A stretch of DNA of 64,000 nt, from the NCBI GenBank assembly GCA_019454875.1, contig JACFNL010000001.1, positions 7,511 through 71,510 on the forward strand, read 5' to 3'. Positions 1-6,906 of this stretch are shown piece after piece. The first letter of the stretch is position 1. Each line of letters opens with the position of its first letter. The DNA comes from Candidatus Cloacimonadota bacterium (GTDB lineage Bacteria > Muiribacteriota > UBA6191). The notes under the pieces are model-generated. The model did not search any database and was not told where the DNA came from. It was given only the letters and a program-made list of their open reading frames with translations. The translations under genes and the position numbers were made by a program.

Positions 1-1249
1 GGGGGAATGCTCCAGCCAGACGATCATCAAGTGTAGAAATCAGGCTGAAGGACTTGGATTGAAAGTTGTCAAAATCCGTCTGGGATATAGGAAATGGAAC
101 CTTAAAACTATTGTTGGACCCAAGTCGCGCTACATCAACTGGCAAGGCACTTAGGGCTATTTTTCCGGATGTTACAATCTGGGCCAGCTTGGAATCAGAT
201 ATATTGGCCCCTACCAAAAACTTGTCACCCATAATCGTGCCATCCTGGATGCGGGCTGAATCAATCAGATTTAAAGGCAGGGATTTTACTTCGCGGTTAT
301 TAAATACATGGGTGTGTAGCTCATCGGCTAATCCACCACTTAACATCGTTGTCAGTGAGGATAAAAGGCTTGAGGCTCCTTCATTTAAATGCTGTTCCAG
401 GGTGTGACTCTGCCCAATAATCTGGTTTAGGTTCACACCAGTAACTACAGAGCCCAACTGCAAGGACATTAGACCCGTAACATTAAGATTCTGAAACACA
501 TTGCTGGCGTTATTTGTATTTACCATAGAACCACTGACTAAAAGGGATCGACCAATAGAAAGCTCTCCAGAGGGAGTCGTCGGAGTGGTCATATCCCCAA
601 GATTGTCCATAAAAAGCATTAGCTGAGTGCCATTTCTTATCTGAAATCCCTGGCGGGTAAAAATACCTGAACTTGCCACCATTCCACCGATGCTTCTTAA
701 CTCCCCATCCTCATTGACCCGAAAAATTGTATCGTTTGCAGTTCTAATACTATTTTTGATAATAAACTGATCAATATTTGATCTTGTTTCACGAGAACCA
801 TCAATCGTAAAACTCTGGATATTCATTCGGTCATGAGAGTGGGCTGTAATATAGGCCGATGGAGGTCTGCTACCCAGGCTTAAAGCATTGTCTGCCGTGA
901 ATGCATAGGGCTTACTGGCTAAAATCTGATCCCCTAACAATCCACCCACTGCCCTGGGGCCTACTGAAATCTGCAAGGTATAGGGTGTATCAAACAAAAG
1001 CTGTGGGCCTACACCAGTGCTTAAATCTAAAGGAAAGGAAAACTGTCCGTTTTCGACGGTTACATCATTGATGGTCTGGGTAAAGGTCGGAATAGTCTGG
1101 GAGGACTGGGAAACCGGAACAATTTTCACTAAAAAGTTGCGCTTCTCTGTACCGGTGAGACCAGACATCCCATCCGTAGAAAGCATACGGCCATGAACCT
1201 CGATAACTCGCGGTACTTCGGCAAAGAGGCTTGTGAAACCTGTCAGCAT
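1..1249 (-). CDS. Partial (5' part; continues past the window start) large secreted fibre-like repeat protein, paralog of the 1286..3937 gene
   Basis: Absent from the ORF track because no stop lies inside the window. A reverse-strand ATG at 1249..1247 (MLTGFTSLFAEVPRVIEVHG...) stays open down to position 1. The translation aligns with the N-terminal half of the downstream paralog: shared '...VPYAFTA(D/K)NAL', 'SFTIDGS' and an 'HTH' tripeptide (ADELHTHVFNN vs AGQHTHAVKDN). The plus-strand ORFs 66..407 and 1193..1723 are antisense to it. Confidence 0.6.
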   Translation of the reverse strand, partial: MLTGFTSLFAEVPRVIEVHGRMLSTDGMSGLTGTEKRNFLVKIVPVSQSSQTIPTFTQTINDVTVENGQFSFPLDLSTGVGPQLLFDTPYTLQISVGPRAVGGLLGDQILASKPYAFTADNALSLGSRPPSAYITAHSHDRMNIQSFTIDGSRETRSNIDQFIIKNSIRTANDTIFRVNEDGELRSIGGMVASSGIFTRQGFQIRNGTQLMLFMDNLGDMTTPTTPSGELSIGRSLLVSGSMVNTNNASNVFQNLNVTGLMSLQLGSVVTGVNLNQIIGQSHTLEQHLNEGASSLLSSLTTMLSGGLADELHTHVFNNREVKSLPLNLIDSARIQDGTIMGDKFLVGANISDSKLAQIVTSGKIALSALPVDVARLGSNNSFKVPFPISQTDFDNFQSKSFSLISTLDDRLAGAFP

Positions 1250-1285
1250 TGTTATGATATAAAATATCCTGAACATGGTTTTATC

Positions 1286-3937
1286 CTATGGCTGAAAGCA
1301 ACACACAAAACGGGTTGTGTCCACGGTATCAACATCACGGGTACTATAATTAAAATCTGTATTGGTACAGGGAAGAACGGTAGGGCTGACTACTATAGAA
1401 TGGACATCACCAGCCCCGTTGATATCCACCATGTCACGGGTCATGTACGCAGTTTGAATCAAAAAATTTGCTCGACAGATTCTGACAACCTGCTGGGCCG
1501 AGCAAATCTGGGCACCTTCATTGTTACATACCTGCAAGGCACTGTAATAATTAGCTGCCGGACTAGGAACTACTTCTCTGGCACAAAATCCCCCGCCCTG
1601 AGCCTCTTCATCTGCAGAAGCAACCAGTCTGTAACCGGTATCTGCAATGGAGGGACAATCGGCAGAAGCCACAGGAGTCTGTTTGGGAACACCAAACAAA
1701 ACGGACATATCATAGGCGTTTAAGGTCAGAACCGTGGTGTAGGCACTGGATTTTACACTGAGCCTTCCATCAAGGTGCATGGCTAGATACTCTTCATTGA
1801 CCCCGGACTGGGAATTGTCAACTTTCATGGCAATGGAGTTTCCGATAGTTCCGGGAAGATTTGGAATGGCATTGGGTGACATCTGAATTGCAGTCTGGTT
1901 GGTATTCTGATGATCAATGGTAACCACGGCTGTGGTTGGATTGTTCACCCGGATATTAATCGGCTCTGCCCTGACTGCAATCACATTGTCCCTTAAATGA
2001 TGATTAAGGATTGAGGCTGTAGTGAGCTTCGAGCCTGTCAGGGTAGAAACTGCGATGTATTCTTCTGTAAGGGTTAAAGAGACAATATGCTCAGGCCCAA
2101 TCGAATTTGTGGCAATGTTTTCTGCTCTTAAGGACTCACCCTGAATCTTGGTACCTGTGATTACCGCATCCTGAAAGCGGATATTGGTAAGTTTTCCTTC
2201 TTCCGGATCCGATTCCTGGTTTCCATAAATTTTTTCGATGGTTATTGCTCCATTGGCAATTTTTTCATTGGTGATGGCACCGACGGCAATCTTGTCCGCA
2301 GTAACTGCCCCTGTAGCTAATTTGCTTGAACCAATAGAAGCATTCTGCAGTTTAACATTGGTCACTGCCCCATCCTGAAGCTTAGCTCCCTGAATGGAGT
2401 TGTCAATCAATTGTGCGTTGCTGATTGCTCCTGTCTGTATATTGGCCCCGGTTATCATGGCTGTGTCCCCAAGGAAACGAAACTTGTTAAACTCCATACG
2501 GGCCCTGTTTCCTTGCGGTTTAATCAAAAGTCTGATTTCCTCAGAGCCCAACCCAAAGGCCCGGCGAAATGAAAGACCACCATCGTTTTCCAGTACCCAG
2601 CGAAACTCGGAAGCAAAGGATCTGGCCTCAAACAATACATTCCCCGTAATTCCATTGGTGGCAATGACTGTCATGCGTTTGGAGCGCAATTCATCAAAAT
2701 CATTTCTGGTATTGATCAAACCTGCCTGATTGCCTGAAAAACCTGCACCAAATACATTGTTCTGATTTTTAAAGGCCAGCTGGTCTGGTAATGCCGATTC
2801 CGCAATTTTACCCACGGAGGTGATATTTGCCAGGGCTGTATCTGGGATATTGGCATTGTCTGCTATGTCCTCATTGCGGATAGAACCATCTACAATGGTC
2901 TGACTGGTTACGATGTTTGATTCCAAGGAGTCGGCACCAAACATATTATCCTTGACCGCATGGGTATGCTGACCTGCTGTGACCACCTGGCCACTTGTTA
3001 AAGACAAAAGCCCCTGCATCAGAGGAGAGTTTGGATGATCTTCCAGACGATGAGTTAATCCAATCAGATTTGGTGTACCTTCTCCCCCTGGCCTGGCAAC
3101 CAGAGAAGAAACCCCAGTAAAACTCAACTGACCATCTACCCTAACACTTTCCAGCCTTGAAGTACCGGTAACATTCATACTCACAGCCGATGAAGCCCCT
3201 CTATACTGCAAATTTCTAAGACTCAAATCCCCATTGGAACTGACATTACTGACCAAAGAACGACCGTTGGAATCAAAGACAGCCAATCCGGACTCAGAAA
3301 TGATGTTTCCAGAGAGTGACATCAGTCCTACCTTGGTGATACTGCCTTCAAAATCCACAGTAAATATGGGAGCTCCAGGCAAACCGGGCTGGGAACCATT
3401 GATCACGGTAAAACGGTTACCCCCAATCGGAGTTCCCTGGCTGCTTCCATCAATAGTAAAACTCTTCACCGCAGAGTCATGCCCATGGCCAACCCTGGAA
3501 TAGGCCGAGGCCAGAAGACCCCCAAGTTTCAAGGCATTTTTTGCCGTAAAAGCATAGGGAACGGATACTAAAGGCACTGCACCAAGATTACCGCCTCCTG
3601 CCGTCAAAACCACTAACTCCAGAGCATACTGTTTATCAAAAGGCAGTGTCTCTGGCACAGGAATTTCAAGATCATATACCCCATCCTCCACAACCACATT
3701 GTTAAGAGTATGGGAAAACACAGTCTGGTCCAGAAGACCACCAGGAAGATAGGGACGAAAATTAACCGTAATCTGTTTTACGGTTTTTCCGTAAATCGGG
3801 CGGGATAAATCTGTTGGGGAAGCTGGCAGAGTCATGAATCTACCCTGAACCTGCAAGAACTGTGGAACACTTGCCCATAATCTGTACTGCAAACAGAACA
3901 GAAGCAATAGCCCAACAAATCCCCGACAAAAATTCAT
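1286..3937 (-). CDS. Large secreted fibre/adhesin-like repeat protein, about 883 aa, with a tail-fibre-like repeat tract and a Cys-rich C-terminal domain
   Basis: The ORF-track frame runs 1286..4003. The best start is the ATG at 3937, preceded by GGAGAA, which gives the signal-peptide-like N-terminus MNFCRGFVGLLLLFCLQYRLWA. There is a tandem degenerate ~10-12-aa repeat tract (DNSIQGAKLQDGAVTNVKLQNASIGSSKLATGAVTADKIAVGAITNEKIANGAITIEKI...). The C-terminal ~110 aa are Cys-rich (...VCNNEGAQICS...RICRAN...PCTNT...FVCCFQP). Confidence 0.75.
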   Translation of the reverse strand: MNFCRGFVGLLLLFCLQYRLWASVPQFLQVQGRFMTLPASPTDLSRPIYGKTVKQITVNFRPYLPGGLLDQTVFSHTLNNVVVEDGVYDLEIPVPETLPFDKQYALELVVLTAGGGNLGAVPLVSVPYAFTAKNALKLGGLLASAYSRVGHGHDSAVKSFTIDGSSQGTPIGGNRFTVINGSQPGLPGAPIFTVDFEGSITKVGLMSLSGNIISESGLAVFDSNGRSLVSNVSSNGDLSLRNLQYRGASSAVSMNVTGTSRLESVRVDGQLSFTGVSSLVARPGGEGTPNLIGLTHRLEDHPNSPLMQGLLSLTSGQVVTAGQHTHAVKDNMFGADSLESNIVTSQTIVDGSIRNEDIADNANIPDTALANITSVGKIAESALPDQLAFKNQNNVFGAGFSGNQAGLINTRNDFDELRSKRMTVIATNGITGNVLFEARSFASEFRWVLENDGGLSFRRAFGLGSEEIRLLIKPQGNRARMEFNKFRFLGDTAMITGANIQTGAISNAQLIDNSIQGAKLQDGAVTNVKLQNASIGSSKLATGAVTADKIAVGAITNEKIANGAITIEKIYGNQESDPEEGKLTNIRFQDAVITGTKIQGESLRAENIATNSIGPEHIVSLTLTEEYIAVSTLTGSKLTTASILNHHLRDNVIAVRAEPINIRVNNPTTAVVTIDHQNTNQTAIQMSPNAIPNLPGTIGNSIAMKVDNSQSGVNEEYLAMHLDGRLSVKSSAYTTVLTLNAYDMSVLFGVPKQTPVASADCPSIADTGYRLVASADEEAQGGGFCAREVVPSPAANYYSALQVCNNEGAQICSAQQVVRICRANFLIQTAYMTRDMVDINGAGDVHSIVVSPTVLPCTNTDFNYSTRDVDTVDTTRFVCCFQP

Positions 3938-3986
3938 GAAATTCTCCCCATTTTGGCCATATTTTTTGTCATTATACTGAAACCCC

Positions 3987-5492
3987 TCAGTTCGGGCAAT
4001 CAACTCCAGGTGTATTGCAGGGTTTACAGTTACCAGAAGCTGTCAAAACCATACTTGCACCCTGACTTGTAAAGCATGCAAAATCGGCTCCAGCCCCAGG
4101 AGAAAAGGTACCTGTCTGTAATAACACCCTCTTACCAAGATTATTGCAAACCACAGAATCTTTTAGTGCCGAGGACCCATCCGTATCACAAAACAAAACT
4201 CTTCCAGTAGTCAAAGCACTGGTTGCCGAACTGTCAAAACGGGCCACTACCTGACCACCTACTGAAAAATCAGTTAATACAACGGTTGTAGTCTTAGCCG
4301 TCAGCTCCTCAGCGGCAGCATTCACAATTGCTCTGAATTCAAATTGCAAATTGGGATTTGTCGGGACCCTTCCATCACCTAAGGTAATGTATGCCCTCTC
4401 CCGATCCCTTAGGGGATTTGTATTCACAATTGACTCCGTGGGACTGGGGCGATAGGCAATCACTGCGGTTTGAGATGGTAAAACATCCGCGGACACTCCG
4501 ATTTGTGCCCCCGTGAAAAACTTATAGGGTGACCCTGGATAATCCACACTGGACACAGGCGGATTCTGATTAAAATTTATAACAATCTGCTGCTGCCTTT
4601 CCGTTTCCCTGTTTCCCCGTAAATCTACGGAATAAAACTGAAACAGATAAACCCCTTCCTGATTCAGAGGCACTGTGGCCGTAGAAATGGATTGCACAAA
4701 AGTACTGGTCACAGCCGAAAGAGTCGAGTCTGGCTTATCCTTTTCCGAAACCTTATAAAACAGAGTGGCGTTTGCCTCATTGTTGGAAAGCACTACATTA
4801 ATAGGGCTTCGGTGTGGGCCGGCAATAGTATCTGCTCCAGTTGAAAAGATCACGGTTACCGGGGCAATGTTATCCACTAACTCAAAGGAAATGGGCACTA
4901 CATTGCTGCCCGTAACAGGCTGTCCCTTACCAACTAGTTCCGTACTTTCTGCCGGAGAAAGATTCACGGAAATTTCTGGAGTGGACAAAAGCGGGACACA
5001 GGAACTGTTTGCTGGATCGCAGGCACTGGAATAAGCATGAATCTGCACCAGCCTGCCAGCACCTGCTGGTACACGAAGCACAGCAAACTGCTGGGTGACG
5101 GGATAAACACCTTCTGCTAGTTTAACCCGGGCTGAATCTGTGACCACAACCCTGAATCTGGCAATCTGATTTTTGACGGACTGGGACAGGGAATAAAACT
5201 TCAGATACTCCTTTTGTCTGGTCAATTCACTCAAATTTTCAGCGGAGTCATATAAAAATGTTCCTCTTTGTCGGTATCCATCCATCTGAAGCAAATCAAA
5301 ATCCGATACTGCCGAAAGCGACAGGCTGGCCACAGAAGGAAAGACAATGCGTAAATTGGACTCCTGAATCGATGTATCGGACAGGCCGGAACCCAGGCCA
5401 GAACCCTTGGAATCACCACCTCCACCGCCGCCACCGCAGCCTGACAAGAGAAGCACCATAAATAGTATCAAGAGTAAGGTTTTGTATCCCAT
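3987..5492 (-). CDS. Lipoprotein with a poly-Gly linker and Ig/fn3-like β domains, about 501 aa
   Basis: The start is set at the internal ATG at 5492, giving MGYKTLLLILFMVLLLSGC followed by GGGGGGGDSKGSGLGSGL (lipobox LSGC). The ORF-track start at 5708 would overlap the upstream gene by 160 nt. The motif 'YLFQFYSVDLRGNRE' is typical of bacterial Ig-like/fn3-like domains. The C-terminus is Cys-rich with a 'VCNN' motif shared with the 1286..3937 protein. Confidence 0.65.
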   Translation of the reverse strand: MGYKTLLLILFMVLLLSGCGGGGGGGDSKGSGLGSGLSDTSIQESNLRIVFPSVASLSLSAVSDFDLLQMDGYRQRGTFLYDSAENLSELTRQKEYLKFYSLSQSVKNQIARFRVVVTDSARVKLAEGVYPVTQQFAVLRVPAGAGRLVQIHAYSSACDPANSSCVPLLSTPEISVNLSPAESTELVGKGQPVTGSNVVPISFELVDNIAPVTVIFSTGADTIAGPHRSPINVVLSNNEANATLFYKVSEKDKPDSTLSAVTSTFVQSISTATVPLNQEGVYLFQFYSVDLRGNRETERQQQIVINFNQNPPVSSVDYPGSPYKFFTGAQIGVSADVLPSQTAVIAYRPSPTESIVNTNPLRDRERAYITLGDGRVPTNPNLQFEFRAIVNAAAEELTAKTTTVVLTDFSVGGQVVARFDSSATSALTTGRVLFCDTDGSSALKDSVVCNNLGKRVLLQTGTFSPGAGADFACFTSQGASMVLTASGNCKPCNTPGVDCPN

Positions 5493-5547: not shown

Positions 5548-6906
5548 TTACCAGCTCGGTAAGGGCCAGAATCCAATCTGAGTTTCATCAGCGTCCGAAA
5601 TTGTAAGCCTTTCTCTTTTGAGGCTCGACAAATGAACACGATAAATTTCAAAATTGTTATCATAATTGCTGGTGAGGTAAATCCATTGATTCTCTGGATC
5701 AAGAACAAGATTGCGGTTTAAAAAGTTGTGTTTCCAAAGAACTCTTGTGTGTTTATTCTGAATGTCAAACTCACAAAGAACTGTATCCCACCCCTCCTTC
5801 AGAGAAACCCTGCTTGCTGAGTAGTAAAATCGTTCTGAATCAGAACTGAAAACACCAAAAATCTCATCTACAGGCTCCACCAGTACCGGGATTCTCTCCT
5901 GTTTTGTAGGATCTGCGAGAAGGAAGTTACTTCTGATGTTAGAATCCACGCGCTGCAAGGCCAGAAAATCCCCTTTAGGAGACAAAATAAATTCAGGGTA
6001 ACTATCAAAACCCTGAATAAAAGGGACTGGCTCTGCCCCATCGGATTGACGAAAAATCCGGAAGGGCTCACCACGCATCTTTCTGGCACTAAACCAGAGT
6101 GTGCCCCGATCTATTTCAAATCTTTGCACCGAGTCAAATCCTTCCAGAACCTTTTGTGCGTCTTCAAATCCTTCCTTTTTCAAATCAAAGGGAATATGAA
6201 ACAATTGTGAATTTTCCCCATCACGACGCAAAAACCAGATTTTACCATTTACATACCTTGGGTGATATTCATCTTCCCGGATTCGGGATAGAGCCTGAAA
6301 CAGTCCTGAATTTTGATCATAATAAAACAGATCCCGATCCACCCCCCCATCTGGATGTTCCCTGTCTTTGGCAAGTTCAGATAAAAAACCAAATCCCTTC
6401 TGAGGTACGGTAATAGCTCCAAAAACCACCTCTGAGAATTGCCGTAAATCCCTGCCATCCGTAAGCATGGTGTAAACCTGATTGTTTCTAAGCAGATAAA
6501 GTCGTCGCACCACTGTATCCTCAGGCTCTTTGACTGCCTCAGTACTAATTCCAATGGTTATGGAAGGAGTATCTGGTAAAACCTCAGTTTGGGTCTGGGC
6601 CTTTATCTTGATAAGAACCCGTTTTAAACCATCTTTAGCGTATTGGTTGGATGGATCATATTCCAGGGCCTGACTGTAATAACGGCTGGCAATTTCTGGA
6701 TATCCAAGCTCTTCAAAACAATAGGCCGCTCGGTTAGCCACTGCCGATGCCTGGGGCCTGAGCTTCAGGTATTCCCGATAGGCAGCCACTGCATGCACCA
6801 GACGATTGGCATTCTGATGCTCAACCCCTTCCCGAAACAGAGCATTTAAATCCCTTGAGTAGGAGCAGGAAATAAGAATCAGGCACAAACCATATCTACT
6901 GAGCAT
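5548..6906 (-). CDS. TPR-repeat lipoprotein with a C-terminal β-rich (propeller-like) domain
   Basis: N-terminus MLSRYGLCLILISCSY (lipobox-like). TPR-like helical repeats occupy the first ~100 aa (AYREYLKLRP..., YYSQALEYDPSNQYA). The remainder is a long β-rich region rich in aromatic residues. Confidence 0.65.
   Translation of the reverse strand: MLSRYGLCLILISCSYSRDLNALFREGVEHQNANRLVHAVAAYREYLKLRPQASAVANRAAYCFEELGYPEIASRYYSQALEYDPSNQYAKDGLKRVLIKIKAQTQTEVLPDTPSITIGISTEAVKEPEDTVVRRLYLLRNNQVYTMLTDGRDLRQFSEVVFGAITVPQKGFGFLSELAKDREHPDGGVDRDLFYYDQNSGLFQALSRIREDEYHPRYVNGKIWFLRRDGENSQLFHIPFDLKKEGFEDAQKVLEGFDSVQRFEIDRGTLWFSARKMRGEPFRIFRQSDGAEPVPFIQGFDSYPEFILSPKGDFLALQRVDSNIRSNFLLADPTKQERIPVLVEPVDEIFGVFSSDSERFYYSASRVSLKEGWDTVLCEFDIQNKHTRVLWKHNFLNRNLVLDPENQWIYLTSNYDNNFEIYRVHLSSLKRERLTISDADETQIGFWPLPSW

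Follow-up and report, generated by a model that had tools for sequence, protein, structure and literature searches.

A probable distant MAT-like chimeric fiber adhesin cassette in candidate phylum UBP17

We describe a probable distant MAT-like chimeric fiber adhesin cassette from candidate phylum UBP17, located at the start of the window, a 64-kb stretch of contig JACFNL010000001.1. Mosaic adhesive trimer (MAT) fibers came to light in 2024 as the repertoire with which Bdellovibrio recognizes prey, and are defined by a signal peptide, a conserved ~130-aa beta-rich N-domain, a trimeric fiber and a variable tip (PMC10769870). Two genes in the window, which we call fiber genes A and B, together with a further paralog that lies past the window edge, probably encode Sec-exported, elongated cell-surface fiber adhesins of this type. 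All genes of the cassette are currently annotated as 'hypothetical protein'. The locus would represent a distant version of the MAT design that is fixed in the little-studied, uncultured phylum UBP17.

Tandem fiber paralogs

Fiber genes A and B lie head to tail in the same direction, and, like every feature described here, are on the minus strand. Gene B, the F1 paralog (1286..3937), appears in the ORF list and encodes an 883-aa protein identical to GenBank MBW7874356.1 (H3C47_00020, 'hypothetical protein') and 100% identical to P0153. Gene A, the F2 paralog (1..1276), runs off the start of the window, leaving the N-terminal 425 aa inside it (100% identical to P0156). A sequence-only reading of this DNA had recognized gene A as partial, which it is within the window because the edge cuts it, but had placed its start at 1249, which is an internal Met. 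We prefer a start at 1276 (MFRIFYII...) because it yields a 19-aa signal peptide (MFRIFYIITMLTGFTSLFA|EVPR) and agrees with GenBank MBW7874355.1 (H3C47_00015). The complete A protein (869 aa, from L007) has the same domain order as B and an 8-Cys head.

The N-terminal halves of A and B are homologous, as the same reading had proposed: BLASTP aligns them at E=4e-39 with 33% identity over ~428 aa, including the shared motifs VPYAFTA(K/D)NAL, SFTIDGS and HTH. Two tandem paralogs had been counted, and while the paralogy of A and B holds, the third paralog beyond the window edge brings the tandem array to three. The family has only ~20 full-length representatives among 1.84 billion cluster representatives, and its paralogs sort into old, stable ortholog groups.

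Fiber architecture

A signal peptide is recognizable by eye at the N-terminus of B, A and every homolog, with positive charge first, then a hydrophobic core and an A-x-A-like cleavage site. In B this Sec-type signal peptide spans aa 1-22 (MNFCRGFVGLLLLFCLQYRLWA|SVPQ; 3872..3937), its position is kept in all homologs, and aa 2-20 are modeled as a helix ahead of a beta-domain. That domain, a MAT_N-like N-terminal beta-sandwich directly after the signal peptide (aa 23-135; 3533..3871), is confidently modeled as all-beta over aa 23-125. Its sole recurrent match is NCBIfam NF053851, Bdello_MAT_N, with the order of matches the same in the proteins and in the model. This profile matches 12 of the 13 family members, with a best E of 5e-9 (36 bits) and weaker values for B itself (0.043) and A (0.11), and all family scores (13-41 bits) fall below its curated cut-off of 60 bits. 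The domain is widely distributed, occurring in Kapabacteria, Zixibacteria, Bacteroidota, Desulfococcaceae and Patescibacteria, among other lineages, and a profile search with it returned only short proteins from many phyla, none of them named as a Bdellovibrio MAT.

The N-domain closes with a VPYAFTAKNALKLGG motif, and just past it is a neck (aa 136-165; 3443..3532) with the first invariant HxH, H151-G-H153. The invariant alignment columns here are P127, Y128, H151 and H153, and the neck, which falls at the C-terminal end of NF053851 (profile positions 115-161), is the most conserved segment between paralogs (55%). The first shaft segment follows (aa 166-330; 2948..3442), with two further motifs, H296-x-x-E299-x-H301 and H324-T-H326, that are invariant in 13/13 sequences. 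The second of these is the 'HTH' tripeptide noted earlier from the sequence.

The remaining shaft includes two blocks of tail-fiber-type repeats. The first (aa 331-385; 2783..2947; IVTSQTIVDGSIRNEDIADNANIPDTALANITSVGKIAESALP) is internally similar to the tract at aa 513-561, and family profile positions ~315-395 recur many times across hundreds of large proteins. The second, the repeat shaft proper (aa 491-654; 1976..2467), consists of a 10-residue (2 x 5) unit, G-A-(I/V)-T-x-x-K-I-x-x, repeated ~16 times. The tandem ~10-aa repeat seen in the initial reading is a true periodicity: over aa 486-655 the lag-10 BLOSUM autocorrelation reaches 0.79, whereas none of 200 shuffles exceeded -0.09. There is also a sub-period of 5 residues. 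Against PHROGs the tract matches phrog_892 'tail fiber protein' at E=4e-19 and four more tail or minor-tail PHROGs, and phage tail proteins match B across aa ~306-650. There are also weak matches to pentapeptide-repeat proteins. We reject membership of that family: the unit is the 10-residue G-A-I-T-x-x-K-I-x-x and not a tandem A(D/N)LXX, no Pfam pentapeptide family matches, and the NCBIfam HetL score of 19 bits falls short of its cut-off of 260. Between the two repeat blocks lies a non-repetitive 'knob' (aa 386-490; 2468..2782) that is conserved in the family alignment and has no database match. A beta-rich segment sits below the head (aa 655-759; 1661..1975), is poorly modeled by AF2, as strands only (pLDDT 33-65), and belongs to the parts that orthologs conserve least. 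No fold could be assigned to either the knob or this segment.

The protein ends in a C-type-lectin-like head (aa 760-883; 1289..1660) that terminates in CCFQP. The Cys-rich character of this domain had been noticed from the start, and its eight cysteines (C761, C785, C804, C812, C821, C857, C879 and C880) are kept in every homolog. A family profile searched against the PDB matches 8OKS, the trimeric C-type-lectin tip of the MAT fiber Bd2740, an NS74 member (Caulton et al. 2024, PMC10769870), at E=1.4e-8 with four Cys aligned, followed more weakly by animal C-type lectins (CEL-IV, aggrecan, mannose receptor and DEC-205 at E 0.08-2.7). Structure comparison agrees. A template-free AF2 model of the head (pLDDT 77-87) has one strand, two helices and four strands, in keeping with the CTLD fold, a beta-alpha1-alpha2-beta core with conserved disulfides and a WIGL-like strand. 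Foldseek places 8oks_A/B at the top for this model (E~4e-5, TM 0.74-0.79), ahead of mincle, tetranectin, langerin, CLEC5A and Link modules, and the BFVD matches are viral C-type lectin-like proteins. The conserved 'YMT.D' strand of the heads sits where Bd2740 has 'WISQLAD'. The calcium-sugar tripeptides EPN, QPD and WND are absent from all 10 heads examined, and the head is lectin-like in fold and not a classical calcium-dependent lectin. The S74 family has no match in Pfam or NCBIfam, so the tip is of the non-S74 kind.

The suggestion that tandem paralogs would carry variable receptor-binding heads survives in part. The head and the beta-sandwich segment before it do diverge fastest, with 28-30% identity between orthologs vs 55% for the N-domain, but all paralogs keep the same 8-Cys fold and show no swapped mosaic tips. 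A diversity-generating retroelement acting on the head was considered and rejected, as no direct repeat involving 1286..1700 is present anywhere in the 64-kb window.

The cassette and its genomic context

Two further genes travel with the fibers. Lipoprotein C (3987..5492; 501 aa) is always directly upstream of fiber 1 in related contigs, and begins with a canonical lipobox, LLLSG|C, that is invariant in five orthologs and is followed by a Gly-rich linker. The earlier description of an Ig-like lipoprotein is correct as to the lipoprotein, but 'Ig-like' rests on weak matches only (OmpL47 E=0.006, Big_3_4 E=0.003). CHB_HEX_C is a further weak match, and C has no Pfam family, no match in the PDB, and is found only in this lineage. 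It had also been proposed that C and the fibers share a Cys-rich 'VCNN' C-terminus, and here the evidence is against the claim. There is no BLASTP match at E<=0.01, hhalign gives a probability of 0.1% (E=0.51), and the motif is not kept in orthologs, which read ACYA, DCFS or ACYN in the fibers and VCSG, QCQS, TCGT or TCLG in the lipoproteins. These results rule out a common head domain, and on such sequence comparisons the shared 'VCNN' is a chance resemblance.

Protein D (5548..6906; 452 aa) has a signal sequence and N-terminal TPR repeats at aa ~20-105 (TPR_2 E=3.5e-6; TPR proteins of the PDB match aa 21-100 with E as low as 5e-24), while its C-terminal region gives weak beta-propeller-like matches (DUF5050, TolB-propeller and Tricorn_N). 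By synteny it heads the cassette in most related contigs. The order D-C-F1-F2(-F3) is kept in six independent contigs, down to 25% fiber identity, and cassette synteny extends across lineages that share only 72% identity in SecY. The locus is chromosomal and free of phage genes; its neighbors are an ABC transporter, the TPR protein and the lipoprotein and, in relatives, a cytochrome.

Comparison with known fibers and alternative explanations

The initial reading had likened these proteins to phage tail fibers and to the chimeric fibers of Bdellovibrio, and both likenesses are supported by the N-domain matches to NF053851, sub-threshold as they are, by phrog_892 and by the similarity of the head to 8OKS. 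As in Bdellovibrio MATs, and Bd2740 in particular, a signal peptide leads directly into a ~115-130-aa beta-rich N-domain with some sequence similarity to NF053851, then into a long fiber region and a C-terminal C-type-lectin-like tip with no calcium motif and four aligned Cys; an S74 chaperone/protease domain is absent, as in the NS74 type, and several paralogs occur per genome. The Bd2740 tip also lacks a calcium site (PMC10769870). There are differences as well. Bd2740 is short (627 aa) and has no beta-helical domains (PMC10769870), whereas the UBP17 shaft has 16 copies of a 10-residue tail-fiber repeat as well as a knob and an additional beta-rich segment. The tips of Bdellovibrio MATs are a mosaic (S74, TNF-like, beta-sandwich and lectin), whereas the UBP17 paralogs all share one 8-Cys fold. 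Unlike the Bdellovibrio genes, those of UBP17 form a tandem array within a conserved cassette that also encodes a lipoprotein and a TPR protein, their N-domains score under the curated cut-off, and their host is not a known predator.

Those sub-threshold scores, together with the presence of the N-domain in proteins of many phyla, could be read to mean that the fibers are lineage-specific adhesins that merely resemble MATs, with a generic beta-sandwich at one end, a shared or convergent head at the other, and an architecture that did not descend as a unit. We consider this unlikely, as both ends of the protein point to the Bdellovibrio family (E=5e-9 for the N-domain; E=1.4e-8 and the top fold match for the head), the order of parts fits the MAT definition (PMC10769870), and the paper that defined MATs reports such fibers in other bacteria too, predatory and otherwise (PMC10769870). 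Another possibility is that each protein is a monomeric surface or periplasmic beta-helix, its 5+5 repeats folding as a pentapeptide-repeat-like quadrilateral helix within a single chain. The sub-period of 5 speaks for this, as do weak matches, at E=0.009 with designed pentapeptide-repeat proteins and at E~1e-3 with HetL and PipB2 models. It nevertheless appears quite improbable, given that phage tail-fiber families match far more strongly, the repeat consensus differs from that of pentapeptide proteins, the HxH motifs are invariant, and the head is homologous to a domain crystallized as a trimer.

The relationship to phage fibers raises a further alternative. The repeat tract is homologous to phage tail-fiber families, phrog_892 and its relatives (E=4e-19), and the C-terminal head is, by our prediction, receptor-binding as in those fibers. 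In T4 gp37, HxH motifs bind iron within the fiber (PMC11705849), and the invariant UBP17 HxH motifs resemble those that bind iron on the gp37 fiber axis. The repeats and the HxH motifs are thus what would be expected if these proteins were receptor-binding proteins of a prophage, a tailocin or another phage-derived particle and not cell-surface fibers. Unlike phage fibers, however, the UBP17 proteins have a Sec signal peptide on every paralog, no baseplate or tail attachment domain, and no phage match to their N-domain or head; phage matches are confined to the repeat region. Their chromosomal setting is also against a phage origin: no capsid, tail, baseplate or integrase genes occur at this or related loci among the transporter, TPR, lipoprotein and cytochrome genes, the cassette is syntenic across lineages at 72% SecY identity, and a search of IMG/VR viral contigs gave no relatives. 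We reject a phage origin and regard a phage-derived particle as very unlikely. The Bordetella phage protein Mtd, the target of a diversity-generating retroelement, is reported to be the only homolog that shares the trimer arrangement of Bd2740 (PMC10769870). Like Mtd, the UBP17 fibers have a C-type-lectin-like fold at the tip of what would be a trimeric binding protein. Unlike Mtd, they show no template/variable repeat pair at the head-coding region in the 64-kb window, their heads are disulfide-rich, and their diversity comes from old paralogs and ordinary divergence.

Proposed mode of action and implications

If these proteins are MAT-type surface fibers, as we favor, the signal peptide would be cleaved and the N-terminal ~115-aa beta-sandwich would hold the fiber on the envelope at its cell-proximal end, possibly via lipoprotein C and TPR protein D, whose genes lie alongside. 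The shaft would then be built by three chains from the two tail-fiber-type repeat blocks and the non-repetitive knob between them, with the invariant HxH and HxxExH motifs coordinating metal ions along the three-fold axis in the manner of phage T4 gp37. At the far end, the disulfide-rich head may recognize a glycan or protein ligand carried by another cell or a particle, without using a classical calcium site, and three old paralogs that diverge fastest in their heads could widen the range of ligands. The locus thus gives a concrete hypothesis for how UBP17 attaches to cells or particles, and its naturally diverged lectin-like heads form a set for binding studies. It also presents a MAT-like design in which two or three old paralogs and two partner genes are kept together in a stable, syntenic arrangement.

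The role of those partners is a more speculative matter. From its sequence and position, lipoprotein C is a candidate anchor or assembly partner of the fibers, which suggests a candidate envelope anchor for MAT-type N-domains. It is conceivable, at low probability, that D, C and two or three fibers form a complete surface-fiber system in which C and D are the anchor or assembly platform for the N-domain. An anchor function for C and D is supported by synteny within a single lineage, since other carriers of the N-domain adjoin no lipoprotein or TPR gene; Collar-domain genes adjoin them instead. If the proposal is true, C and D would supply an envelope partner for MAT-type N-domains, and the cassette throughout UBP17 would mark a contact-dependent lifestyle, whether epibiotic, predatory or particle-attached.

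Promoter-like sites in the region show no excess over shuffled sequence (15 vs 16.8), and the best of them is a weak sigma-70-like match (TTGCCC-17-TATAAT, 10/12 positions; 3971..3999) at the 49-nt gap between C and B.

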